Part shown: positions 301-51,605 of the stretch, one piece after another
Numbering within the stretch: position 1 is the first letter of the stretch
How the letters are laid out: each line of letters starts with the position of its first letter
Sequence record: NC_049822.1
Direction: 5' to 3' (one strand)
DNA from: Escherichia phage vB_EcoS_G29-2
DNA length: 51,739 bases
The notes under the pieces: generated by a model
Database searches by the model: none
What the model was told of the DNA's origin: nothing
Seen by the model: the letters and a program-made list of their open reading frames with translations, nothing else
Translations under genes and position numbers: made by a program

Positions 301-456
301 GATTTTTGTATGTATATATATGGGGTAGCGGTAATCCTCCGTCAACCAGGTCAACAAGGTCACTTTTAGCTGTTAAACCAATAACTTAACCAGTGCATTT
401 TGTTATCTCTAAACGCGCCACATGCCAAAAATCGTTATTAAAACACAAAATATATT

Positions 457-486
457 GACATGTAGGAAAGGAAAGGCAATAATGCA
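457..486 (+). promoter_or_regulatory. sigma70-like promoter candidate (TTGACA -17/18- AATAAT)
   Basis: TTGACA at 457-462 and A/T-rich -10 near 480-486, upstream of first gene. Confidence 0.45.
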
Positions 487-1005: not shown

Positions 1006-1258
1006 GGCATTAATTGGAGTTTTGATTGCAATCGCTACCCTGACCGGATGCGAAAAGGCATCGGAATCAACCGTTGTCGTAGGCGTGGAGTCAGATTTCA
1101 AAGTCGGTCGCCTGTTCACTGTTGACGGATGCACAGCATACAGATTCTATGATAACGGTCGCGCGATCTATTACACCAATTGCAAAGGCGCAACGGATAG
1201 CACGTACAACAGCGGAAAGAACGTAATGCGCCAGCAAGTCACAACAGATATTAAATAG
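998..1258 (+). CDS. putative lipoprotein (signal peptide with lipobox LTGC)
   Basis: N-terminus MSKALIGVLIAIATLTG-C; start overlaps upstream stop; stop codon embedded in motif copy at 1254. Confidence 0.6.
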   Translation: MSKALIGVLIAIATLTGCEKASESTVVVGVESDFKVGRLFTVDGCTAYRFYDNGRAIYYTNCKGATDSTYNSGKNVMRQQVTTDIK

Positions 1259-1300
1259 CACTTTTTGTTAAAACGCCAGGTGCGAATCCTGGCATAATAG
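1254..1300 (+). promoter_or_regulatory. conserved 21-bp motif promoter (motif + spacer hairpin GCCAGG/CCTGGC + -10 ATAATA)
   Basis: AATAGCACTTTTTGTTAAAAC then 19 bp then ATAAT. Confidence 0.6.
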
Positions 1301-1718: not shown

Positions 1719-1764
1719 ATAGCACTTTTTGTTAAAACTCAAAAACGATAACCAGGCATAATGC
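1718..1764 (+). promoter_or_regulatory. conserved 21-bp motif promoter
   Basis: motif then 19 bp then ATAATG. Confidence 0.55.
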
Positions 1765-2765: not shown

Positions 2766-2808
2766 ATAGCACGAATTGTTAAAACTCAAATGTGGGGCCA
2801 GGTATAAT
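2764..2808 (+). promoter_or_regulatory. conserved motif promoter (variant AATAGCACGAATTGTTAAAAC, -10 TATAAT inside GGCC stem)
   Basis: motif then 17-18 bp then TATAAT. Confidence 0.55.
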
Positions 2809-2838
2809 GGCCTCACTTTCAACGAAGGAGATAAAACG

Positions 2839-3909: not shown

Positions 3910-4067
3910 CCTGGTTACTTTTAATCTTTGTCACAAGTTACAACTCCGCCGCTATTGAATCGCATGAGTTCCACGGCGAATCAAGATGTCAGGAAGCACG
4001 AAAGCAAGTTGTTCTCCACATGTCAGATAGTGGAAAAGATGTAACGGCGTTATGTGTCCGTAAATAG
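3906..4067 (+). CDS. small hypothetical protein with hydrophobic N-terminus
   Basis: ATG overlaps upstream stop (ATGA); stop embedded in motif copy at 4064. Confidence 0.4.
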   Translation: MTWLLLIFVTSYNSAAIESHEFHGESRCQEARKQVVLHMSDSGKDVTALCVRK

Positions 4068-4109
4068 CACTTTTTGCAAAAACAGATTGTTGGGCTTGCG
4101 GTATAGTAA
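4064..4109 (+). promoter_or_regulatory. conserved motif promoter (hairpin GGGCTT/AAGCCC around -10 TATAGT)
   Basis: motif then 18 bp then TATAGT. Confidence 0.55.
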
Positions 4110-4138
4110 GCCCATCGACAACGAAAAAGGAAAACATC

Positions 4139-4834: not shown

Positions 4835-5425
4835 ATGAAGCGCGACATTATCATCCTTAACGGACCGCCAGGAGTTGGCAAGGATACGCTTGCGGCATAC
4901 TTAACGGGCCATCGTTACGCAGCCGTTAAAGCGTCGTTTAAACAGCCTATGTTTGATATTGCGTTTTCCATGCTTGGCGTTTACCGATATGACGAGTTCA
5001 TTGATCTGTATAACGACCGCGAGCAGAAAGAAAAGCCTCAAGCAATCTTGCAAGGCAAGTCTCCTCGCCAGTTCATGATCTGGATTAGCGAAGAAGTTAT
5101 GAAGCCAGCTTTTGGCGAGCAATATTTCGGAAATCGCATGGTTGAGCAAGTACACGAGATGTACAGAGATTTGGCTGTTGTAATTAGTGATGGCGGATTC
5201 CCTGAAGAAATAAAGCCGCTCGTTAAGGCAGGCCATGAAGTTCACATTTGCCGACTGCATCGCGAAGGCTTCACGTTTGATGGCGATTCACGAAACTATA
5301 TTGACCTGAACGGATACCATCACCGAGTAAAACATTACGACTTCACAATGATTGATGGCGATCCAGAAAAGACTGTTGACGAGATCATCAAAACGGTCCA
5401 GTGGAAACACATTAAGATCAAATAG
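4835..5425 (+). CDS. P-loop nucleotide kinase (dNMP kinase-like)
   Basis: Walker A GPPGVGKDT; resembles phage deoxynucleoside monophosphate kinases; stop in motif copy at 5421. Confidence 0.65.
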   Translation: MKRDIIILNGPPGVGKDTLAAYLTGHRYAAVKASFKQPMFDIAFSMLGVYRYDEFIDLYNDREQKEKPQAILQGKSPRQFMIWISEEVMKPAFGEQYFGNRMVEQVHEMYRDLAVVISDGGFPEEIKPLVKAGHEVHICRLHREGFTFDGDSRNYIDLNGYHHRVKHYDFTMIDGDPEKTVDEIIKTVQWKHIKIK

Positions 5426-5466
5426 CACGAATTGCTAAAAGCGGGGCGCAATGCCTCGCTATAATG
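5421..5466 (+). promoter_or_regulatory. conserved motif promoter (variant, -10 TATAAT)
   Basis: AATAGCACGAATTGCTAAAAG then 18 bp then TATAAT. Confidence 0.5.
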
Positions 5467-6479: not shown

Positions 6480-6767
6480 ATGGCTAAAAGCAATCGTAAG
6501 ATGTTGATTAACGCATTCGAAAAGGCAGCGCTTGAGCGTGGTTGGAATGACTCATTTCACACGGCAAACTGTATCCGACGTTACGGATTCAAGAATTGCC
6601 GCTCCTGGGCGCGTCAAATGGCTTCATGGTATGATTTTGATGCGCATTATCTTGATATGGATTGCGCCCTAGTCGAAATGATTGAGCAGGCAGCGCTAGA
6701 GGATAGACCGTTGACGCAATCTGATTTTGACGATTTTGTTCGCGATGAAATCTATTACATGAGCTAA
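6480..6767 (+). CDS. hypothetical protein
   Basis: RBS AAAGGAGGAAA; stop in motif copy at 6766. Confidence 0.55.
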   Translation: MAKSNRKMLINAFEKAALERGWNDSFHTANCIRRYGFKNCRSWARQMASWYDFDAHYLDMDCALVEMIEQAALEDRPLTQSDFDDFVRDEIYYMS

Positions 6768-6811
6768 TAGCACTTTTTGTTAAAACTTCCGCGAGGGCAT
6801 TTGTTAAAGTG
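6766..6811 (+). promoter_or_regulatory. conserved motif promoter (weak -10)
   Basis: motif present; -10 region TAAAGT less canonical. Confidence 0.4.
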
Positions 6812-6842
6812 TCCTCATTGAAGCGAAGCAGAGGAAAGCACA

Positions 6843-8070: not shown

Positions 8071-8216
8071 TTGACAACGATTTCCTGATTGGATAGCATA
8101 TCAATCGTTTACATAAGAGCGGCGTTAGTGCCGAACGGGTGGCGCGGTTGCCACGCAACAACGGCGATATGCAGGTTTTTACCGTAAGACGTATCGCCTT
8201 TTTTATAGGTGAATAT

Positions 8217-15244: not shown

Positions 15245-15266
15245 GTTTAACAAAAAATGCTATCAT
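15245..15266 (-). promoter_or_regulatory. motif copy in inverted orientation between head genes (function unclear)
   Basis: TTAACAAAAAATGCTAT on + strand; lacks the usual 19-bp spacing to a -10. Confidence 0.3.
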
Positions 15267-19003: not shown

Positions 19004-19024
19004 CTTTTAACAAAAAGTGCTATC
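19004..19024 (-). promoter_or_regulatory. motif copy in inverted orientation upstream of chaperone gene (function unclear)
   Basis: CTTTTAACAAAAAGTGCTATC on + strand immediately before RBS of 19037. Confidence 0.3.
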
Positions 19025-38037: not shown

Positions 38038-38511
38038 TTAGCAATTAGTGCTTTCAGGTTTATACAGGAATCCGCCAGGTTCATAATCTGACATTCTTAC
38101 CACTCGCAACATTTCACGCTTATCACATCTCTTTGTGAGCGGTTTGCCATTGGAATCAAATCGCAGATCTGGACGGCAGAATGACGCGCGATAGCCTTGA
38201 CAACCATATTTCTTGTAATCGTTATGCACCTTTTGAGCGCCAGCGGCTGAAATCATACCGCGAACGCGCCACTGATTTACAGTTTGCTGGCTAACGTTAA
38301 GACGCTTTGCCATTGCTGACACGCTGCCGTAATACTCAATAAGAATGTCAAGCCGTGCTTTTAGTCCGGCGCGCACTTCATCTTTTAAAACATAGTATCC
38401 TGTAGGGCGCTTGCGCTTTTTCTTATCTTTACCCCGTCGAGTTCCGTTATTGCCATTAATTGTGCGCTTGTCAATCTTGCCTGTTGATACCGCGATTCGC
38501 TGCTCTTTCAT
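38038..38511 (-). CDS. HTH DNA-binding protein (putative regulator)
   Basis: helix-turn-helix SVSAMAKRLNVSQQTVNQWRVRG; basic K/R-rich N-terminus. Confidence 0.6.
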   Translation of the reverse strand: MKEQRIAVSTGKIDKRTINGNNGTRRGKDKKKRKRPTGYYVLKDEVRAGLKARLDILIEYYGSVSAMAKRLNVSQQTVNQWRVRGMISAAGAQKVHNDYKKYGCQGYRASFCRPDLRFDSNGKPLTKRCDKREMLRVVRMSDYEPGGFLYKPESTNC

Positions 38512-38523
38512 TATTCATTCTCC

Positions 38524-38569
38524 AATAGCATTTTTTGTTAAACGATGATTTAATGATTGTGTATTATAC
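38524..38569 (+). promoter_or_regulatory. conserved motif promoter for helicase operon (no spacer hairpin, -10 TATTAT)
   Basis: CAATAGCATTTTTTGTTAAAC then 19 bp then TATTAT. Confidence 0.5.
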
Positions 38570-40640
38570 ACTCCAAATGGCATTACTCAAAGGTTTTAGA
38601 ATGATTCCAAACATTGAAAAGCAAATATCAGCACTTGGTGAAGCGGTAATTAAATCCATTCAGGAGCGGTTCACTGTTGGCGATATTGTGCCTTACCCTT
38701 ACCAGTGCGTTGCATACGCTGAGATCGCAAAGCGTATGAAAAATTATGAGCATCCATTCTTTGTTAAAGCGTCGGTATCGGCTGGCAAAACATTGATGTT
38801 TGCAATGGTTGCTCACCAGTGCCGGAAAATGGGCTTAAAAATGATGGTTCTTGCTCGCCAAGCTGAGATTGTGGATCAAGATTCTGAAGAGATAACAAAT
38901 CTTGGCGTGCCGAACTCAATCTATTGCGCAGGGCTGAAGACAAAGAGCGCATACTTTCCGATCGTTGTTGGTTCTGAGGGAACTGTAGTTAATGGACTGT
39001 TTAAAGCGCTTGGCGACTATGTTCCGCACGTTATCGGGATTGACGAGTGTCACCAGGTGGATTGGGAAGACCTTGCCGACGCCATAGAGAAAGATGAGTC
39101 ATTTTTACAAATGACGACAAAGAAAGGCGAAAGAGTACCAAATCCAGATTATGACATAGAGAGCGATAACGAGTGCGAAGAGTTCCTGATTGGTGAGGAT
39201 GGCTTGCCAATGGAGGGAACAGGCCGCACACAATACACTGTCATTATCATGGAAATGATGCGACGTTGCAGGAAAGCATATGGCCATGAACTGCGCATAT
39301 TTGGCATGACTGGATCGGAGTTTCGCGGTGTAGTCCCAATACTGGTAGAAGATAAAAAGCAGAAAGGATTTTGGCGTGAACAGGTTACTAATATTGACAC
39401 CAACTACCTGATCAAGTTCGGTTCTGTTGTTCCGACTAATTTTGGCGACGTTGGCGATCTCGGGTATGACCTTTCAGAGTTTGAGGCATCAAGCGAGGAT
39501 GGCGTTGCAGACTTTGACGCTAAAACGCTTCGCAGGATGGAACAAAAAATTCATGAAGAAGCGACCATGACAAAGCGCATCATGGCGAAAGTGCACGAGA
39601 TCTGTAAAAACCGTAACGGTGTACTTGTGACATGTGCAGGCGAAAGGCACTGTAAAGAGGCGGCGGCAGCATTGCCGCCTGGAACGACTTACAGGATCAT
39701 TACTGGTAAGACTGGCGATAACCAGCGCAAGGAGTGGTTGAAAGAAGCATACGAGGGAAAGGTTAAATACATCTTCCAGGTGCAGGCGCTAACTACTGGC
39801 GTTAACGTGCCGTTTTGGGATACGTCTGTTATTCTGCGTAAGATTGGATCTCTTACGTTGCTGATTCAGCTTTTAGGGCGCGGAATGCGACTGCTTAAGA
39901 AATGGCATAAGGAGCAAGGATTCAAGAAAGATGATCATCTCGTCATGGATTTTTCAGGAACGATGGACGAGCTAGGGGAGCTTTATTTTGATCCGATACT
40001 GGAACAGGCGCAGCACCAGAAGCGATTCAGAAATGGTAAAGATCCGAAGCCTTGTCCTGTTTGCGGAACTCTTAACAGCTATTATGCTCGTCGTTGTATG
40101 CACGTAGACGAAAACGGCAACAGATGCGAGTGGTTCTTTAAATTCAGGACATGTGATGATCAGATTGACCCGCGCACTAAAAAGATTATTCATCGCGGTT
40201 GCGGAACGAAGAATGATATTGCGGCCAGGGTATGCAGACATTGCGACATGTCATTGATTGACCCTAACGAGAAGTTAAGCGGAAAGCACTACACAAAAAA
40301 CGACTGGTTTCAGGTGCAATCTTTCTCGGTTGACATGACGAAAAACCAGAAAGGGATAATATTTAATTATGAGCTTTCCGATGGCATAGACACTTTCAGG
40401 GCGAGAGAGATATTTTTCCCTGAATCTGAGAGCCAAATTTGCCGCGCAAAATGGCGAAGCGTTGCTCTTAAGCACATACCAGATCGCCGTGTTGCTGGCA
40501 TGGTGGCGAGCTATCGTAATGCACGTAAAATCATGCAATATGTGAATCACATCATGCCACCATCGCGTGTAACTCACCGCAAGACTAGCAAGGGTGAAGA
40601 TAATTTGTACAAGAAGGACTTTAATTATGGCAATGACTGA
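38535..40640 (+). CDS. ATP-dependent helicase (SF2, DEAH-type) with C-terminal zinc ribbons
   Basis: Walker A SAGKT, DEAH-like IGIDECHQV, C-terminal CPVCG...C...C clusters; start uncertain (38535 TTG, ATG 38578 or 38601). Confidence 0.75.
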   Translation: MLNDDLMIVYYTLQMALLKGFRMIPNIEKQISALGEAVIKSIQERFTVGDIVPYPYQCVAYAEIAKRMKNYEHPFFVKASVSAGKTLMFAMVAHQCRKMGLKMMVLARQAEIVDQDSEEITNLGVPNSIYCAGLKTKSAYFPIVVGSEGTVVNGLFKALGDYVPHVIGIDECHQVDWEDLADAIEKDESFLQMTTKKGERVPNPDYDIESDNECEEFLIGEDGLPMEGTGRTQYTVIIMEMMRRCRKAYGHELRIFGMTGSEFRGVVPILVEDKKQKGFWREQVTNIDTNYLIKFGSVVPTNFGDVGDLGYDLSEFEASSEDGVADFDAKTLRRMEQKIHEEATMTKRIMAKVHEICKNRNGVLVTCAGERHCKEAAAALPPGTTYRIITGKTGDNQRKEWLKEAYEGKVKYIFQVQALTTGVNVPFWDTSVILRKIGSLTLLIQLLGRGMRLLKKWHKEQGFKKDDHLVMDFSGTMDELGELYFDPILEQAQHQKRFRNGKDPKPCPVCGTLNSYYARRCMHVDENGNRCEWFFKFRTCDDQIDPRTKKIIHRGCGTKNDIAARVCRHCDMSLIDPNEKLSGKHYTKNDWFQVQSFSVDMTKNQKGIIFNYELSDGIDTFRAREIFFPESESQICRAKWRSVALKHIPDRRVAGMVASYRNARKIMQYVNHIMPPSRVTHRKTSKGEDNLYKKDFNYGND

Positions 40641-41046
40641 TAAAGGCGATTATCTGGAGTTTTACGAAAGAGATCCGACGGATACGCTAAAAGAGGAATC
40701 ACACCAGATCGGGGCGTTTCAATGGTTGACTTATGCTTACCCTGAATTGCTGGCATGGCATACGAAAAACGAGGGCGACAAGGGGATCGCCACCGCAATG
40801 ATGGATCAGCAAGCCGGACTCGTTAAGGGCGTAAGTGATTTTATCATCCTGATTGGATTAAAAGGCCGTTATCCGTTTGCAGCAATTGAGATGAAGCGCG
40901 TCAATAAGTCTGGAAAGGGTAAGGCTTCACCAGTCAGTAAGGAGCAAAAAGCCTTCTTACGACGTGTGCGCGAGCTTGGCGGATTCGCTGCCGTAACATA
41001 CGGATATAAGCAATTCATGATCGCTGTAGAATACATGATGAAATAG
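40627..41046 (+). CDS. VRR-NUC domain nuclease
   Basis: PD-(D/E)xK-like SDFIILIG...AIEMKR; start overlaps helicase stop. Confidence 0.6.
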   Translation: MAMTDKGDYLEFYERDPTDTLKEESHQIGAFQWLTYAYPELLAWHTKNEGDKGIATAMMDQQAGLVKGVSDFIILIGLKGRYPFAAIEMKRVNKSGKGKASPVSKEQKAFLRRVRELGGFAAVTYGYKQFMIAVEYMMK

Positions 41047-41088
41047 CACTTTTTGTTAAAACAGGCGCGAAGGATTGCGCCATAATAA
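41042..41088 (+). promoter_or_regulatory. conserved motif promoter (hairpin GGCGC/GCGCC, -10 CATAAT)
   Basis: motif then 19 bp then ATAATA. Confidence 0.55.
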
Positions 41089-41120
41089 CACCAGTTCAAC
41101 AAGCAACAGGTAATTAAGAA

Positions 41121-41822
41121 ATGATCAAAGAAACCGAAGTGACATTTGAACAAATCGAACGAGAAACATTCATTGGCAATGCTCTTGCTACCGGAGGCTA
41201 TTACCAGGCTGTTAAACCAAATCAATATTATAAAGTCACTGGCAACCGCTATAACGGCAGCAATACGCCGGACGTTGTGCGAGATTTGTGGTCTACGCCG
41301 TCTGAGCTTGTCGCATGGATGGAAATCGAATACGGTGATTATGACATCGACGCTGCGGCAAGCAAAGAAAATGCTGTATGTGAAAAATTCTACAGCAAGG
41401 AAACAAATTGCTTAAAGCGTTGGTGGGGTAGTAATAAGCATATCTGGCTGAATCCACCGTACAGCAATATAACGCCTTTCGTTAAGAAAGCGATTGAGCA
41501 AATGGAGCACAATAACCAGATCGACATTCTGTTACCTTGCGACACATCGACAGGATGGTTTTATGAGGCACAACAGAAAGCAGCGGAAATAATCTGGATC
41601 ACTGGCGAAGTTTACCAGGAGGAAGGAATAGAATATTCCAGAACTGGACGGCTTGCTTTCACTTCAGCGCTTACAGGTAAACCAGTGCAGGGAAACAACA
41701 AAGGAAGCGTTATTTTCATCATGCGCGAACTTAAAGAAGGTGAGCAGCAGAAAACTCGATACGTTAAGATCAGCGACATTTGCCCGTCAGTGGCAGAGCG
41801 TCGAGCAAGAAAGCGGAGTTAA
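41121..41822 (+). CDS. dam: DNA N6-adenine methyltransferase (phage Dam family)
   Basis: catalytic motif WLNPPYS (NPPY); size typical of phage Dam. Confidence 0.75.
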   Translation: MIKETEVTFEQIERETFIGNALATGGYYQAVKPNQYYKVTGNRYNGSNTPDVVRDLWSTPSELVAWMEIEYGDYDIDAAASKENAVCEKFYSKETNCLKRWWGSNKHIWLNPPYSNITPFVKKAIEQMEHNNQIDILLPCDTSTGWFYEAQQKAAEIIWITGEVYQEEGIEYSRTGRLAFTSALTGKPVQGNNKGSVIFIMRELKEGEQQKTRYVKISDICPSVAERRARKRS

Positions 41823-41826
41823 TATC

Positions 41827-42066
41827 ATGCAGAAAGAAAGAAGCGTTTATTTAAATGAAACTGGAGAGTGGTTGTTATTTCGCGCTATGGTTTGCGAGGC
41901 GCTTGATAAAAACGAGTTCATAAAACCGCTATTAGGTTGTGATCCGTGGGAGTTTACAAGCGCGCTTGATATGAGCTTTGAGGAAACAAGAAAACTACCG
42001 CTTGAAAAATGGCATGAGCAGATCGGTAAAGACTTGCAAGAGTTTTACGAATCCGCGACAAAATAG
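41827..42066 (+). CDS. hypothetical protein
   Basis: RBS GGAG; stop in motif copy at 42062. Confidence 0.45.
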   Translation: MQKERSVYLNETGEWLLFRAMVCEALDKNEFIKPLLGCDPWEFTSALDMSFEETRKLPLEKWHEQIGKDLQEFYESATK

Positions 42067-42107
42067 CACTTTTTGTTAAAAAGCCCGGCCCTGTGTCGGG
42101 CATAATT
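42062..42107 (+). promoter_or_regulatory. conserved motif promoter (hairpin GCCCG/CGGGC, -10 CATAAT)
   Basis: motif then 19 bp then ATAATT. Confidence 0.55.
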
Positions 42108-42138
42108 ATTTCATCAAAACGAACAAGAGGAAAACAAA

Positions 42139-42318
42139 ATGGTTGTTTACGATCCACGCGCTTTTAAAATTGCTCAAGAAGTTTCACGCGAATCTGTTGC
42201 TGGCGGTTCGGTTAACGGCTATCAGTTTGATTGGTCGGCAGCAATGACCTTGCTTAAGGTTGCATATGGTCACGCGCCAATTGAAACAGCGGAGGCATAT
42301 TATAAGCATGAAGGTTGA
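42139..42318 (+). CDS. small hypothetical protein (59 aa)
   Basis: not in track; RBS AAGAGGAAAA downstream of motif promoter. Confidence 0.4.
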   Translation: MVVYDPRAFKIAQEVSRESVAGGSVNGYQFDWSAAMTLLKVAYGHAPIETAEAYYKHEG

Positions 42319-42550
42319 ACAAGGTAGGCAGGCTGTATGGGATCACGCAAAGGAATGTGGGATCTCTGAAGACATAGCCAGGATAGCAAAATATTTTGAT
42401 ATTGCTGACATAAGCATTATAAGCGGCGACAAAATGACTTTTCTCAATGAACGCCCGCGCAAGATGCATCGCGTCCCAGCAATACCAACAAAGATTGATT
42501 TCAAAGAGGCTATGGCGAAAATTCGCGAGCCGCGCAAATACTACAAATGA
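42308..42550 (+). CDS. hypothetical protein
   Basis: ATG with GGAGG upstream, overlaps previous ORF. Confidence 0.4.
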   Translation: MKVEQGRQAVWDHAKECGISEDIARIAKYFDIADISIISGDKMTFLNERPRKMHRVPAIPTKIDFKEAMAKIREPRKYYK

Positions 42551-42648
42551 GGATTATTATCATGTGGCGTTTGTTACTTTTGCCCTTACCTGTTATGATG
42601 GCGATCTCTATTGTATATGTTGTCATAATGAGATAAGGAGAATTTTTG

Positions 42649-43764
42649 ATGAAGCAAATCAAAATCACAGATGAACAATTTATCAATGAGCGCAAGCAGG
42701 GAAAGACATATAAGCAGATAGCTAATGAGTATGGTATGAACGTTCGCAGCATTGAGCGACGCGCAGCGCGACTTGCAAAGCAAGGTAAAGTTACAACCAT
42801 CGGATCACCTGGCTTTGGCGTTACTGGAGAATCAAAGCTAATTGATAAAGATGGCAATGTGGTTATGACATGGATTAAGACAAGCAAGGACCGCGAGCAG
42901 TTAGAAGCATTAATGCAGGCCGCTATGGATGCATTTAGCGAAGAAGTTCCGCGACTTGATCCGCAACCAGAATCACAAAAGGATTATAGCGAGACGTTAT
43001 CACTGTATCCGATCTTTGACATGCACTTGGGCGCAATGGCGCATAAGCATGAATGCGGAGAGAATTGGGATACAGCAACAGCAGAGCGCGTAATGAATAA
43101 TTTCATTGATTATTCTATCCAGTGCGCGCCGGATAGCGAAAAAGCTGTTTTGCTGATTGGTGGCGATATGCTTCACAGTGACGGACTTGAAGCGGTTACA
43201 CCTGCAAGCGGTCACGTATTGGATCAAGATAGTCGATACGCAAAACTTGTTTATGTTGCCATCCGGTCAGTGCGTCGAGCAATCACAAAGCTGTTATCAA
43301 AACATAAAAACGTAGAGATTCAGATAATTGAAGGCAACCACGACCAAAGCGGCATGATCTGGTTGCGCGCAGCAATGGCGGCAGCATATGAGAATGAGCC
43401 GCGAGTGCATGTTGATGTGTCTCCGCGAGTGGTTCATCACACACAATATGGCAAAACATTCCTGGCATACCATCATGGGCACACTATCCGCAAGCCTGAA
43501 ACATTGCTCATGATGTGTGCGGCAGACTGGCGCGAAGACTTCGGAAATTCAAAAATGATGTATGCTCACGTAGGGCACTGGCATCATCAGACAGTAACTG
43601 AAACAAGCCTGGGCATTGTTGAAGTGCATAGCACTATGGCGGCAAAAGATGCATATGCGGCGCGCGGTGGATGGCGTTCTCGACGCCGTGCGGCTGTTAT
43701 TGTTTACGATAAAGAATACGGAGAGGTAGGGCGATTTATGCATTATCCAGAAATGGCTTATTGA
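42649..43764 (+). CDS. calcineurin-like metallophosphoesterase with N-terminal HTH domain
   Basis: motifs GGDMLHSDG, GNHDQ, GHWHH; N-terminal YKQIANEYGMNVRSIERRAARL; RBS AAGGAG. Confidence 0.65.
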   Translation: MKQIKITDEQFINERKQGKTYKQIANEYGMNVRSIERRAARLAKQGKVTTIGSPGFGVTGESKLIDKDGNVVMTWIKTSKDREQLEALMQAAMDAFSEEVPRLDPQPESQKDYSETLSLYPIFDMHLGAMAHKHECGENWDTATAERVMNNFIDYSIQCAPDSEKAVLLIGGDMLHSDGLEAVTPASGHVLDQDSRYAKLVYVAIRSVRRAITKLLSKHKNVEIQIIEGNHDQSGMIWLRAAMAAAYENEPRVHVDVSPRVVHHTQYGKTFLAYHHGHTIRKPETLLMMCAADWREDFGNSKMMYAHVGHWHHQTVTETSLGIVEVHSTMAAKDAYAARGGWRSRRRAAVIVYDKEYGEVGRFMHYPEMAY

Positions 43765-45282: not shown

Positions 45283-45328
45283 AAATATACCCGATACGAG
45301 ATCGGGAGTTTTAACAAAAAGTGCTATT
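45283..45328 (-). promoter_or_regulatory. conserved motif promoter (hairpin CCCGAT/ATCGGG, -10 ATATTT)
   Basis: minus-strand motif then 19 bp. Confidence 0.5.
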
Positions 45329-47423: not shown

Positions 47424-47452
47424 TGATGATAACTCCTTTTTTTGATGCGGCA

Positions 47453-47497
47453 ATAATACCGCACCAATGCTACCCGCATTTAACAAAAAATGCTATT
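47453..47497 (-). promoter_or_regulatory. conserved motif promoter (variant, -10 TATTAT in hairpin loop)
   Basis: AATAGCATTTTTTGTTAAAT then 19 bp then TATTAT. Confidence 0.5.
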
Positions 47498-48128: not shown

Positions 48129-48173
48129 ATTATGCCAGGCTTTTACACCTGGCTTTTAACAAAAAGTGCTATT
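48129..48173 (-). promoter_or_regulatory. conserved motif promoter (hairpin GCCAGG/CCTGGC, -10 CATAAT)
   Basis: minus-strand motif; same hairpin sequence as copy at 1254. Confidence 0.55.
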
Positions 48174-49497: not shown

Positions 49498-49671
49498 TAT
49501 GCAATCCTCATTATATTTGGTGTGGTAACTATATCAGGTTTGAGAAATATTGTTTAGCAATTTGTGCTATCAGTTGAAATAGCTATGGCGATTTGCTCGC
49601 TTTCCGTCTCCGCCATAATGATCATTAGAAACGGGAATCATCCAGGAATTATGAAATATTATTAGTCTCAT

Positions 49672-49953
49672 CTAATTAATGCCAACAACGTTAAAACTTA
49701 CAGCTTTTGTTGCGCTAAACACATACGCTTCAACAGCCTCACCAAATACACGAATTTTTCCCTGGCCGTACTGCGCATTCATATTGCGCCAAACCGTCCT
49801 GTTAGAACAGAACGCGCTACCAGTCTTGATAAGATTATCCATCTCTTTCCTTAGATCATGATAATCAAGCCAGAATCTATAAGCGCGTTGTTTAATGAGT
49901 TGTGCCTTGATTGTTTCAGTTGAGTTTTTAAAATCGCTGTTTGTGTAGGCCAT
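49672..49953 (-). CDS. hypothetical protein
   Basis: RBS GGAGG; TAATG coupling with upstream gene. Confidence 0.5.
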   Translation of the reverse strand: MAYTNSDFKNSTETIKAQLIKQRAYRFWLDYHDLRKEMDNLIKTGSAFCSNRTVWRNMNAQYGQGKIRVFGEAVEAYVFSATKAVSFNVVGIN

Positions 49954-50147
49954 TACACAACCTCCATAAAAGTATTGAATCCACGCAGTTTGAAAGCATT
50001 GCCATGTTTAACAACGTTCCATGTCAGGCCGGAGTGATACGCAACCATATCCTCAAGATCAATGGTGATGATAGCGCCTTTCTTAAAGATTCCTTTCTCG
50101 TGAGTGGTGTCACGCTGTACAACTTTAACATCAACTTGATTTTCCAT
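49953..50147 (-). CDS. hypothetical protein
   Basis: RBS GAGGA and conserved leader downstream of motif promoter 50178-50223. Confidence 0.5.
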   Translation of the reverse strand: MENQVDVKVVQRDTTHEKGIFKKGAIITIDLEDMVAYHSGLTWNVVKHGNAFKLRGFNTFMEVV

Positions 50148-50177
50148 CTTTAAATCCTCGTTCGTTGTCGATGGATG

Positions 50178-50223
50178 TAATATACCATTCAGGCGCATAC
50201 CGTTTTTAACAAAAAGTGCTATT
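50178..50223 (-). promoter_or_regulatory. conserved motif promoter (-10 ATATTA)
   Basis: motif then 18-19 bp then ATATTA; followed by conserved leader. Confidence 0.5.
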
Positions 50224-50509
50224 CAACAACAGATCCAGTTAAAGAGATAAGTGCCCTTGTGATCTTGTGTCTGCGATACTGACGCGCAACAACCGGAAGA
50301 TTTTCACCGCTTTGATGACCGAAGCAGATCGGCAACTCACCCTCAAGAGAGCGGAAGCCGCCAAACTCAAGATCACGCACAGGCTTTGAGCGCCACGCTT
50401 CAATAAATCCGCGTTCGTCACGCGTGATATAGCGGTATATGTTCGGGAGGGGCAATTGTATCCCCTCAAAATCCACTGTATCGGTATAGCTGTAAAACTT
50501 AGAACTCAT
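50219..50509 (-). CDS. hypothetical protein
   Basis: RBS GGAG; stop in motif copy. Confidence 0.5.
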   Translation of the reverse strand: MSSKFYSYTDTVDFEGIQLPLPNIYRYITRDERGFIEAWRSKPVRDLEFGGFRSLEGELPICFGHQSGENLPVVARQYRRHKITRALISLTGSVVE

Positions 50510-50651
50510 AGTCAACAACTCCAAATTCGTTAACAATTTGCGCCTTATAGAATCCGCCATTTTTCGCCAGGTTATAACATGCCGCTACAGTTTCAAATTC
50601 GCGCACTTCCGGCTGGCTGTTTTCGTGTTCCCAGGTAATCAGAGTAACCAT
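50499..50651 (-). CDS. small hypothetical protein (50 aa)
   Basis: not in track; RBS GAGGA and conserved leader after motif promoter 50685-50729. Confidence 0.4.
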   Translation of the reverse strand: MVTLITWEHENSQPEVREFETVAACYNLAKNGGFYKAQIVNEFGVVDYEF

Positions 50652-50684
50652 TTTCAAATCCTCGCATTCGTTATCGATGTGTGT

Positions 50685-50729
50685 AATGTACAGGAATACG
50701 AGGATTGAGTTTTAACAAAAAGTGCTATT
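50685..50729 (-). promoter_or_regulatory. conserved motif promoter (-10 TACATT)
   Basis: motif then 18 bp then TACATT; followed by conserved leader. Confidence 0.5.
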
Positions 50730-50995
50730 TAGTCCAGGAATTCGATTTCGCGCTCGCCAGTTAACGGATCTTTAATCCAGAATCCTAGCGCCTCACCGTA
50801 AATACCGCCATAGAATCCAAGCGCCGACAGATCCTCACCTTTAACAAATACCAGATCCCCGCTACGGCTTACGTGAGATACGTTAACGATAACCGGAAAG
50901 GTGCGATCCTTAAATGCAGGCCGCAGGGCGTAACACCCGTTATTGAGCAAACGTGCTTTGCGCTTAACTGGAATAGGTGCATTGATTCGCGCCAT
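50729..50995 (-). CDS. hypothetical protein
   Basis: RBS AAGGAGA; stop in motif copy. Confidence 0.5.
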   Translation of the reverse strand: MARINAPIPVKRKARLLNNGCYALRPAFKDRTFPVIVNVSHVSRSGDLVFVKGEDLSALGFYGGIYGEALGFWIKDPLTGEREIEFLD

Positions 50996-51008
50996 CTTTA
51001 TTTCTCCT

Positions 51009-51254
51009 TCATTGTTGATCGTGTTTAACTGCCATCAGAATATCACAGGACTCGTTAATAAATTTTGCCATGCGCTTATCATCACCATCAGGGATTAGCG
51101 CGTTAAACTCGCGTTTGCTACTGAACACAGTCACTTTATGGAATGATGCGAACGGCATCGACGGGAACTCGACTGTTTGCGTCAAGATCCGCAAACCCAT
51201 CTTTTTGGCCCTTACCTGGGCCTCGGCAAGTTCAAAATCCACTTCACTAATCAT
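51009..51254 (-). CDS. hypothetical protein
   Basis: ATGA coupling to upstream gene. Confidence 0.45.
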   Translation of the reverse strand: MISEVDFELAEAQVRAKKMGLRILTQTVEFPSMPFASFHKVTVFSSKREFNALIPDGDDKRMAKFINESCDILMAVKHDQQ

Positions 51255-51523
51255 TTCTTGATCTCCTCGGCAATAAACTTCAGGACTTTGCGCAAAAAAA
51301 CTTCGTTGTTGATGGTTGCTGGCAATTCCTCTTTCACTTCTTGCGGCAGATAGATATTGTCGTGCCAGGTTAAGCAATCGTAATTGATACGATAAGAGCA
51401 AAGCCACTCGCAATCGTTATCCGCTTCCCAAATGCAGAGTTGCAGAACATCGCCAAAATCCTCAACAGTCAGATCCAGACCGTGACGCTTTGCAAAGTTG
51501 AAAGTGGTTTTGCTGATGTTCAT
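51251..51523 (-). CDS. hypothetical protein (first gene of leftward operon)
   Basis: RBS CAGGAGA, downstream of motif promoter 51561-51605. Confidence 0.55.
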   Translation of the reverse strand: MNISKTTFNFAKRHGLDLTVEDFGDVLQLCIWEADNDCEWLCSYRINYDCLTWHDNIYLPQEVKEELPATINNEVFLRKVLKFIAEEIKK

Positions 51524-51560
51524 TGCTATCTCCTGATGGGTATCTCGTTTCGATGTGTCT

Positions 51561-51605
51561 AATGTACCCGATCAGGGCAATTCAGTTTTAACAAAAAGTG
51601 CTATT
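51561..51605 (-). promoter_or_regulatory. conserved motif promoter (-10 TACATT)
   Basis: motif then 18 bp then TACATT; drives leftward operon from 51523. Confidence 0.5.

Follow-up and report, generated by a model that had tools for sequence, protein, structure and literature searches.

Putative marbox-type promoters with nested hairpins in Escherichia phage vB_EcoS_G29-2 and related T1-like phages

In Escherichia phage vB_EcoS_G29-2 (NC_049822.1), of which a stretch of 51,739 nucleotides was analysed and is referred to as the window throughout, a short motif recurs in front of the helicase gene, the Dam methylase gene and small genes of the replication and methylase block, and many of its copies are followed by a GC-rich inverted repeat. 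The locus raises the question of what the repeated motif does, and why a stem-loop would be placed in the midst of what looks like a promoter. The initial annotation, made from the nucleotide sequence without database searches, proposed that the copies are promoters consisting of an upstream element and a -10, and that the inverted repeat in their spacer is either a protein-binding palindrome or an RNA hairpin at the 3' end of transcripts reading through from upstream.

The analysis presented here points to sigma-70 promoters of the class II type known for the activators MarA, SoxS, and Rob, in which the hairpin would be an RNA element of the upstream message. The probability of this reading is put at a little over one half (roughly 0.55). 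The existence of the motif as a repeat, as well as the designation of a few of the hairpins as terminators, is already known from the literature and from database annotation.

The repeated motif and its resemblance to class II marboxes

The motif ATAGCACTTTTTGTTAAA is present in the window in 17 copies at no more than 3 mismatches, against 0.15 expected. Copies preceding the helicase, Dam methylase and small genes were located at 38525, 41043, and 42063 on the plus strand, each one base past the position given in the initial annotation; further copies at 5422(+), 38054(-), and 49570(-) had escaped it, as had the identity of the motif. For comparison across the family, an exact-pattern scan of IMG/VR delivered 120 stretches from contigs of T1-like phages, which together with phage T1 and the window amount to 272 unique motif instances, orthologous copies included; all family-wide counts given below refer to this sample. 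In the re-annotation of phage TLS, published in 2024, the same element was described as a 21-nt direct repeat, aaATAGCACnnnTTGnTAAAA, with 18 intergenic copies, and it was reported to occur in T1, Rtp, and Rogue1 as well (PMC11447400). Its function was left open, with stoperators, enhancer sites, and UP elements as the authors' guesses, and only three sigma-70 promoters were found in that genome (PMC11447400). The TLS repeats occupy the same intergenic and transcription-oriented positions as the copies in the window, and no link between the repeat and a downstream -10, a marbox or the hairpins was drawn in that paper (PMC11447400).

The motif conforms to the marbox, which is bound by the monomeric AraC-family activators MarA, SoxS, and Rob and has been defined as 5'-GCANNWWNTGNNAAA-3' (PMC12052159) and, in a second definition, as 5'-GCAHWWWWTGYYAAA-3' (PMC6900184). 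Exact matches to GCANNWWNTGNNAAA number 21 in the window against 1.6 expected, and matches to GCAHWWWWTGYYAAA at no more than one mismatch number 22 against 2.4 expected. In T1, 20 marbox matches were found, and the unrelated myovirus Vibrio phage K204, which served as negative control, contains 2. Moreover, the positions that were left free in the IMG/VR pattern follow the degeneracy of the marbox, with W in column 9 in 98%, W in column 10 in 97%, and Y in column 14 in 95% of the instances (n=272).

Class II marbox promoters carry their sites in forward orientation near -41, lack a recognisable -35 and have a canonical -10; in the corresponding complexes the activator occupies the -35 region, from which region 4 of sigma is reportedly displaced (PMC10268841). 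The phage units display each of these sequence features, including overlap of the motif with the -35 region at a fixed distance from the -10. Among the 21 exact matches, 17 face a -10, a Shine-Dalgarno sequence (SD) and an ATG downstream on the same strand, and the exceptions comprise two antisense copies in the late region (15263- and 19023-) and two copies without a downstream start codon, one of which is located within a gene (18545). Alignment on the motif revealed a hexamer that has A as its second and T as its sixth base, situated 19-20 nt past the 18-nt motif in the window copies and at exactly 20 nt in 194 of the 272 copies family-wide. The spacer, initially given as 19 bp, therefore has to be corrected to 20 nt past the 18-mer, which equals 18 bp past the 20-bp marbox. 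Within this -10, A-11 and T-7 are invariant. A recognisable -35 is lacking; TTGYTA, the sole hexamer to contain TTG, is 22 bp away from the -10. The proposed combination of an upstream element with a -10 is thus supported, and can be sharpened to a putative class II marbox at the spacing of the Escherichia coli micF promoter.

In micF, the 20-mer ACAGCACTGAATGTCAAAAC at -51 to -32 is followed by 18 bp and TAGAAT; in the phage, ATAGCACTTTTTGTTAAAAC at -50 to -31, as counted from the inferred start, likewise stands 18 bp ahead of the hexamer. Both 20-mers have the same orientation, and 15 of their 20 positions agree. The resemblance extends to the class II MarA/SoxS/Rob promoters of E. coli and Salmonella in general (micF, fumC, inaA, lpxC P2), which share the consensus, the forward orientation, a centre at about -40/-41, the missing -35 and the canonical -10. 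In contrast to these host promoters, the phage set consists of some 20 copies in a virulent phage rather than of stress genes, its putative marboxes deviate far less from the consensus and among themselves, the marbox shares sequence with the stop codon of the preceding gene, and spacer or discriminator carry a putative RNA hairpin. Recognition of the repeat as a probable class II marbox with micF geometry appears to be new, and no literature linking marboxes or Rob, MarA, or SoxS with T1-like phages was found.

The surroundings of the element are equally regular. Each copy is followed by the hexamer, 6 nt, a conserved (C)ATCGAAACGA, the SD and the ATG. The preceding gene ends with the TAG within ATAGCAC in 108 of 159 family-wide cases (window examples in Table 1), so that the activator site overlaps the end of that coding sequence. 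The first 10-11 bases of the predicted transcript form a leader that is common to promoters and phages, consisting of (C)ATCGAAACGA followed by GAGGA and the ATG; it begins approximately 12 nt past each -10 (e.g., at 41093-41103, 42113-42123, and 4115-4125) and could be a translational leader, an effect of the initial transcribed sequence, or a processing site.

As no MarA-like gene can be recognised in the window, the putative activator is most likely Rob, MarA, or SoxS of the host. Alternatively, the motif could be bound by a protein of the phage itself, for example the Cro/YdaS-like helix-turn-helix (HTH) protein encoded at 38038-38511(-), and serve as an activator box or a stoperator-like silencer, the likeness to the marbox being convergent or a matter of mimicry. 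Stoperators or enhancer-binding sites are what the TLS authors proposed (PMC11447400). A conserved HTH regulator gene adjoins the helicase promoter in all T1-like phages, and this gene has a sigma-70-like promoter of its own (TTGAGT-16-TATAAT). In addition, the variant of the motif with C in column 14 (154 of 272 copies) contains the partial dyad TAGCA-N5-TGCTA. However, this dyad is lost in the 105 copies (of 272) with T in column 14, and A1, C7, T11, A17, and A18, the invariant positions, are arranged asymmetrically, for which reasons a dimeric operator of this form was rejected. Furthermore, all conserved and degenerate positions obey the consensus of a monomer marbox, position, orientation and 18-bp spacing are exactly those of micF, and a phage-made activator would have to be available before the early genes are expressed. 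A phage-encoded binder of this kind is considered unlikely.

The middle promoters of phage T4 follow the same logic: a whole temporal class of phage genes is served by promoters in which an activator box stands in for the -35 next to a good -10. In T4, the MotA box that replaces the -35 is centred at -30 and acts together with AsiA, activator and co-activator both being encoded by the phage, whereas the box in the T1-like phages lies at about -41, is a putative site for a host factor, and has no recognisable phage activator.

Several other known elements were considered for the motif and rejected. A sigma-54 promoter (TGGCAC-N5-TTGCW) does not agree with the motif TAGCAC-N3-TTGYT, which has AG for GG and a gap that is 2 bp too short; GG and GC doublets exactly 10 bp apart are not present. 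UP elements offer the alpha-CTD a site at -59 to -38, with A/T tracts at -57 to -47 and -46 to -38; the T-tract of the motif at -43 to -39 and its AAA at -35 to -33 are about 8 bp too near to the start, and the invariant GCAC and TG are not required of UP elements. Sites for IHF and CRP were not matched by eye.

Hairpin geometry, pairing, and upstream genes

Inverted repeats occur far more often behind the motif than by chance, in agreement with the claim that many copies carry one. Of the 17 copies in the window, 9 fold at -10.4 kcal/mol or below over the 44 nt past the motif, compared with a background mean of -6.2, and the folding energies of the window hairpins range from -10 to -19 kcal/mol. 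Family-wide, 64% of the copies have a strong stem, compared with 17% of shuffles. The 3' stem ends form two sharp peaks, at position 0 of the hexamer and at +11, the latter corresponding to -1 relative to the inferred start. Stems of class A (approximately 43 copies) are located in the spacer, and their 3' end falls on the first base of the -10. In class B (approximately 96 copies), which is the commoner geometry in the family, the 5' arm is located in the spacer and the discriminator forms the 3' arm, which ends at -1, with the -10 enclosed in the loop or the upper stem. The register-selected subset of class B has an invariant G-14 and commonly T-15, which is the signature of an extended -10. 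Window hairpins of class A begin at 1275, 5440, 41064, 42083, 45306, and 48153, and those of class B at 2792, 4091, 6793, 47467, and 38030; loop lengths vary from 3 to 14 nt. All GC-rich inverted repeats listed initially are present, with coordinates that are correct to a base or two. Their placement within the spacer holds for class A; at 4091, as well as at 2792-2816, 6793-6816, and 47467-47442, the arms flank the -10, a geometry that had been overlooked. The two fixed hairpin geometries nested in the promoter appear to be new.

Both classes lie wholly upstream of the inferred +1. Consequently, the hairpin can be contained only in RNA that reads through from the preceding gene, and never in the transcript of the promoter itself. 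The promoter at 1719-1762 is arranged differently, since its stem lies in its own leader and the hairpin there would belong to the promoter's own transcript.

The stems fall into 74 distinct sequence clusters, in which pairing is preserved and the sequence of the arms is not; this rules out a sequence-specific binder of the palindrome. In the commonest class B register, 6 of 8 pairs have changed on both sides, and the covariation score is 0.72 compared with 0.29 for shuffles and at most 0.23 for slid controls, in an alignment that was chosen for a stem in that register and in which the 95% pairing is thus given by construction. When any isolated mismatch was allowed, the stems contained 36 G·T against 2 A·C mismatches, and 15 G·T against 2 A·C remained when only positions outside the -10 hexamer were counted, once per cluster. 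This preference of G·T over A·C indicates that selection acts on the sense strand only, i.e., on RNA or on a single non-template strand and not on a cruciform. Moreover, GNRA or UUCG is found in 7 of the 15 four-base loops of class A, which is a signature of RNA.

The presence of a hairpin is associated with the presence of an upstream gene. A hairpin follows 105 of 159 copies located at the end of a same-strand open reading frame (ORF), compared with 28 of the 100 that lack one (odds ratio 5), where an ORF was counted when it was on the same strand, had at least 45 codons and had its stop at the motif, and where the inclusion of orthologous copies inflates the p-values. Inspection of T1 gave the same picture: each of the approximately 10 motif copies at which a same-strand gene ends is accompanied by a hairpin, and the other copies have no hairpin or only an atypical stem. 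The helicase promoter had been singled out initially for lacking the hairpin, which was borne out in the window and in its orthologues in approximately 17 related phages, all without a GC hairpin. No same-strand gene lies upstream of this promoter, its neighbour at 38038-38511 being on the minus strand. Orthologues of the Dam promoter could not be mapped by tblastn, the N-termini of Dam differing between phages. The four promoters at the right end (51604, 50728, 50222, and 49570), which mostly lie behind same-strand ORFs, are the main exceptions to the association between hairpin and upstream gene.

Of the two possibilities raised at the outset, the RNA hairpin of read-through transcripts is favoured by the asymmetry of the mismatches, the loop sequences and the coincidence with upstream ORF ends, and the recognition of the hairpins as probable sense-RNA elements tied to upstream genes appears to be new. 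A known RNA family was ruled out, as Rfam gave no match at gathering thresholds in the whole window, and so was an RNase III site, the stems being just 5-10 bp long.

The inverted repeat might instead act in the DNA, as a cruciform or as a hairpin of the non-template strand that tunes melting, supercoiling sensitivity or the lifetime of the open complex. In support of such a role, the stems end at fixed promoter positions (-12 or -1), the class B discriminators are rich in C (2.98 C in 6 nt), like those of promoters with short-lived open complexes, and G·T is also the least destabilising mismatch in DNA. Yet a cruciform needs both strands to be paired, whereas A·C, which mirrors G·T on the opposite strand, is outnumbered by 15 to 2. 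In addition, T-7 and the discriminator are paired in the class B stem although sigma-70 must keep them single-stranded, the added stability conferred by GNRA and UUCG loops is found in RNA, a third of the promoters have no hairpin, and hairpins are missing exactly where no same-strand transcription arrives, a pattern that a promoter-intrinsic role does not predict. Taken together, an action in DNA is regarded as improbable. The promoters of the N4 virion RNA polymerase offer a precedent for a small hairpin at phage early promoters. In N4, the hairpin constitutes the promoter, which the phage RNA polymerase reads on template-strand DNA that has been extruded, whereas the hairpin of the T1-like phages, which reportedly encode no RNA polymerase, is dispensable (absent in a third of the promoters), variable in sequence and marked by sense-strand signatures of the RNA type.

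Alternatively, the motif could be the promoter itself, with TGnTAAAAC as an extended -10 and a start at about column 27, in which case the hairpin would be a stabiliser at the 5' terminus and the TATAAT-like hexamer a sigma-70 pause of the lambda pR' type. T12, G13, T15, and A16 do fit TGnTA, the commonest class B stem begins at column 27, where a purine is always found, and 5'-terminal hairpins stabilise mRNAs of E. coli. Nevertheless, T at -7 would be rare (column 20 is C, A, or G except in 9 of 272 copies), and class A stems, which begin at columns 19-24, would be truncated by such a start. The downstream hexamer, in turn, has G-14, A-11, and T-7, the micF spacing and a normal distance to SD and ATG, and the dependence of the hairpin on upstream genes would not be predicted, which makes this explanation very improbable.

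The protein-binding palindrome, i.e., a site for a dimeric repressor or activator, can be dismissed, since the near-perfect inverted repeat in or around core promoter elements that speaks for it has arms as different as GCCAGG, GGCGCGA, GCCCGGC, CCCGAT, GGGCTT, GAGGGCA, and others (74 clusters in which pairing alone is kept), loops of 3 to 14 nt, and wobble pairs that are tolerated strand-specifically.

Possible function of the hairpins at the 3' end of the upstream message

Some of the hairpins have the appearance of intrinsic terminators. The minus-strand hairpin 38030-38002 followed by U7 (-22 kcal/mol, z = -4.5) is a textbook example and carries the -10-like TATCAT in its loop; terminators equivalent to it (37995-38030(-)) are annotated in T1 (35930-35971) and in TLS (T57). 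The hairpins 42083-42101 (tail ATAATTATTT) and 45306-45290 (tail TATATTTGTT) passed a lenient terminator scan, of which the former was the top terminator-like site. In the RefSeq annotation of T1, the rho-independent terminators 38973-39001, 39998-40024, 41980-42007, and 35930-35971 are hairpins behind motif copies, and the one at 39998-40024 covers CCCGGCgaaaGTCGGG, the T1 orthologue of the hairpin 42083-42101. Likewise, the predicted TLS terminators T57 and T62 directly abut the repeats DR10 and DR12 (PMC11447400).

The likeness to rho-independent terminators concerns the GC-rich stem-loop immediately past a same-strand gene, found at these sites as well, and the occurrence of GNRA and UUCG loops. 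The U-rich tract of terminators is found at 38030-37995, 42083-42111, and 45306-45280, whereas most phage copies lack it; class B stems are followed by ATCGAAACGA and not by a U-tract. A further difference is that the phage hairpin is nested in the next promoter, with the -10 in its 3' tail (class A) or in its loop (class B).

Besides the selected covariation alignment and the orthologous copies mentioned above, several observations weigh against the proposed reading. As far as general termination is concerned, a U-tract follows few of the hairpins, the T content of the discriminator is 1.95 in class A and 1.97 in hairpin-less copies, and at least 5 T in the 9-nt tail are found in 37% of the class A copies only. 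About a third of the copies behind a same-strand ORF have no hairpin, and the asymmetry between G·U and A·C is likewise compatible with a DNA hairpin of the non-template strand. With respect to the activator, the search that detected no MarA/SoxS homologue among the six-frame ORFs of the window (phmmer, best E 0.46) used query sequences entered by hand, and a phage-encoded marbox binder may have no sequence similarity to MarA. Finally, no start-site or RNA 3'-end data were found in the literature on transcription of T1-like phages.

With no U-tract in most copies and no enrichment of T, the designation as terminator fits a minority of the hairpins. The sequences point to a stable hairpin in the sense transcript between cistrons, in which G·U is tolerated, A·C is avoided and pairs covary. 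Stable intercistronic hairpins without a U-tract are known from the REP sequences of malEFG and the stem-loops of the puf operon, where they guard the upstream segment from 3'-to-5' exonucleases. The phage hairpins resemble these stabilisers in their intercistronic position, the absence of a U-tract and the selection of pairing on the sense strand. In contrast to REP, they do not form a repeated sequence family, each having its own sequence at a position that is set by the geometry of the promoter. It is more plausible that most of the hairpins are barriers to 3' exonucleases or pause elements than that they are terminators, and they may also mark a processing site.

The favoured reading can be phrased as the following mechanism, in which start site, activator identity, and the effect of the hairpin on RNA are what we infer. 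Rob, MarA, or SoxS, bound to the marbox at -50 to -31 in place of a -35, would recruit sigma-70 RNA polymerase to an extended -10, TAnnnT at 18 bp past the marbox, usually with G at -14 and often with TG. Transcription would most likely start 7 nt past the hexamer, at the A of (C)ATCGAAACGA, with SD and ATG following 25-30 nt on. As a class II activator frees the 18-bp spacer and the 6-bp discriminator of specific contacts, such an arrangement would account for the two sharp hairpin geometries. Into these contact-free positions the phage would write a GC-rich hairpin, which in the sense read-through RNA may mark or protect the 3' end of the upstream message. Intrinsic termination would ensue where the hairpin is followed by a U-rich -10 or discriminator (42083 and 45306) or by the U7 run (38030), and hairpins without a U-tract would more likely hold off 3' exonucleases or cause pausing. 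The predicted outcome is a chain of compact and partly insulated transcription units.

Coordinates, neighbouring genes, and significance

The coordinates of the units are collected in Table 1. The window represents a T1-like phage (51.7 kb), which over region 38000-43000 shares 98% identity with Escherichia phage herni and 95% with Shigella phage pSf-1. The neighbouring genes are annotated as helicase, VRR-NUC nuclease, Dam methylase, small regulator, and phosphoesterase, and the VRR-NUC domain was confirmed by Pfam. The 157-aa protein encoded at 38038-38511(-) gave a weak Pfam hit to a Cro/YdaS-type HTH. The 75-aa gene 29389-29616(-) occupies the place of cor in T1.

Table 1. Promoter elements and hairpins in the window (starts are inferred).
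Feature	Position	Strand	Sequence	Remarks
Helicase promoter, marbox (20-mer)	38525-38544	+	ATAGCATTTTTTGTTAAACG	No GC hairpin
Helicase promoter, -10	38562-38567	+	TATTAT	Start ~38574; helicase ATG 38601
Dam methylase promoter, marbox	41043-41062	+		TAG 41044-41046 is the stop of the upstream VRR-NUC gene
Class A hairpin	41064-41081	+	GGCGCGA/agga/TTGCGCC	Ends on first base of -10; 3' tail U-poor; in antisense direction followed by TGTTTTAACA
Dam methylase promoter, -10	41081-41086	+	CATAAT	Start ~41093; Dam ATG 41121
Promoter of 59-aa gene (42139-42318), marbox	42063-42082	+		TAG 42064-42066 ends the upstream 79-aa gene
Class A hairpin	42083-42101	+	GCCCGGC/cctgt/GTCGGGC, then ATAATTATTT	Resembles a terminator
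Promoter of 59-aa gene, -10	42101-42106	+	CATAAT	Start ~42113
Marbox	38035-38054	-	AAAGCACTAATTGCTAAAAA	Within 3' end of Cro/YdaS-like regulator gene; faces primase gene
Hairpin	37995-38030	-	GCCUGGCA...UGUCAGGC, loop TATCAT, then UUUUUUU	Intrinsic terminator interleaved with promoter
Marbox and class A hairpin (1275-1293)	1255-1293	+	GCCAGG/CCTGGC	-10 CATAAT at 1293
Marbox promoter without spacer hairpin	1719-1762	+	GGGCGGC/GTCGCCC	Stem downstream, in own 5' leader
Marbox and class B hairpin (2792-2816)	2766-2816	+		Arms flank -10 TATAAT at 2803
Marbox and class B hairpin (4091-4114)	4064-4114	+	TGGGCTTGC/GTAAGCCCA	Arms flank -10 TATAGT at 4102
Marbox (GAA variant) and class A hairpin (5440-5460)	5422-5460	+		
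Marbox and class B hairpin (6793-6816)	6767-6816	+		Arms flank -10 TAAAGT
Marbox promoter of 75-aa gene (29389-29616)	29648-29690	-		No same-strand upstream gene; no hairpin before start
Marbox and class A hairpin (45306-45290)	45290-45327	-	CCCGAT/ATCGGG, then TATATTTGTT	
Marbox and class B hairpin (47467-47442)	47442-47496	-		Arms flank -10 TATTAT
Marbox and class A hairpin (48153-48134)	48134-48172	-	GCCAGGT/GCCTGGC	
Four marbox promoters (51604, 50728, 50222, 49570)	49533-51604	-		Canonical -10 spacing; no strong hairpin

The sigma-70-like promoter that faces the HTH regulator gene (38563-38590(-)) lies back to back with the marbox promoter of the helicase gene and overlaps it, an arrangement suggestive of a regulatory switch or of mutual interference. 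In the window, canonical sigma-70 promoters show no enrichment (22 versus 28.5 expected; 10 versus 18.3 expected). The sole near-consensus examples of the left arm lie at 455-483(+) (TTGACA-17-AATAAT) and 8071-8099(+) (TTGACA-17-TAGCAT), and are candidates for activator-independent transcription. Two antisense marbox copies were observed in the plus-strand late (structural) region, at 15246-15263(-) and 19006-19023(-), positions that are kept in T1 (15086(-) and 18850(-)). The copy at 19023(-) has the -10 TAGCAT and would fire into a bidirectional terminator past the major tail gene, yielding an RNA of about 35-40 nt, and the copy at 15263(-) has no proper -10 at the canonical spacing; these copies could provide a small antisense RNA or act as a sink for the activator.

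For annotation, the findings imply that terminators called at these sites overlap promoters and that most such hairpins are probably not classical terminators. The reading as marbox and extended -10 provides some 20 putative promoters per genome, which makes transcription of T1-like phages testable, and the nested hairpins suggest that the RNA signals of one unit can be packed into the contact-free DNA of the next promoter. The wider proposal, that the Drexlerviridae have wired nearly all of their early and middle promoters to the Mar/Sox/Rob activators of stress response and antibiotic resistance in the host by way of near-consensus class II marboxes, and that each of these promoters doubles as a 3'-end module for the RNA of the preceding gene, is put forward tentatively, at somewhat less than even odds. 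If it is true, expression of the phage would be enhanced or gated by bile salts, salicylate, oxidative stress, or mar-type resistance mutations, and phage development would be tied to the regulon of multidrug efflux (AcrAB-TolC, TolC being the receptor of TLS). This would have a bearing on phage therapy against mar-type resistant Enterobacteriaceae, as well as on the behaviour of these phages in the bile-rich gut.

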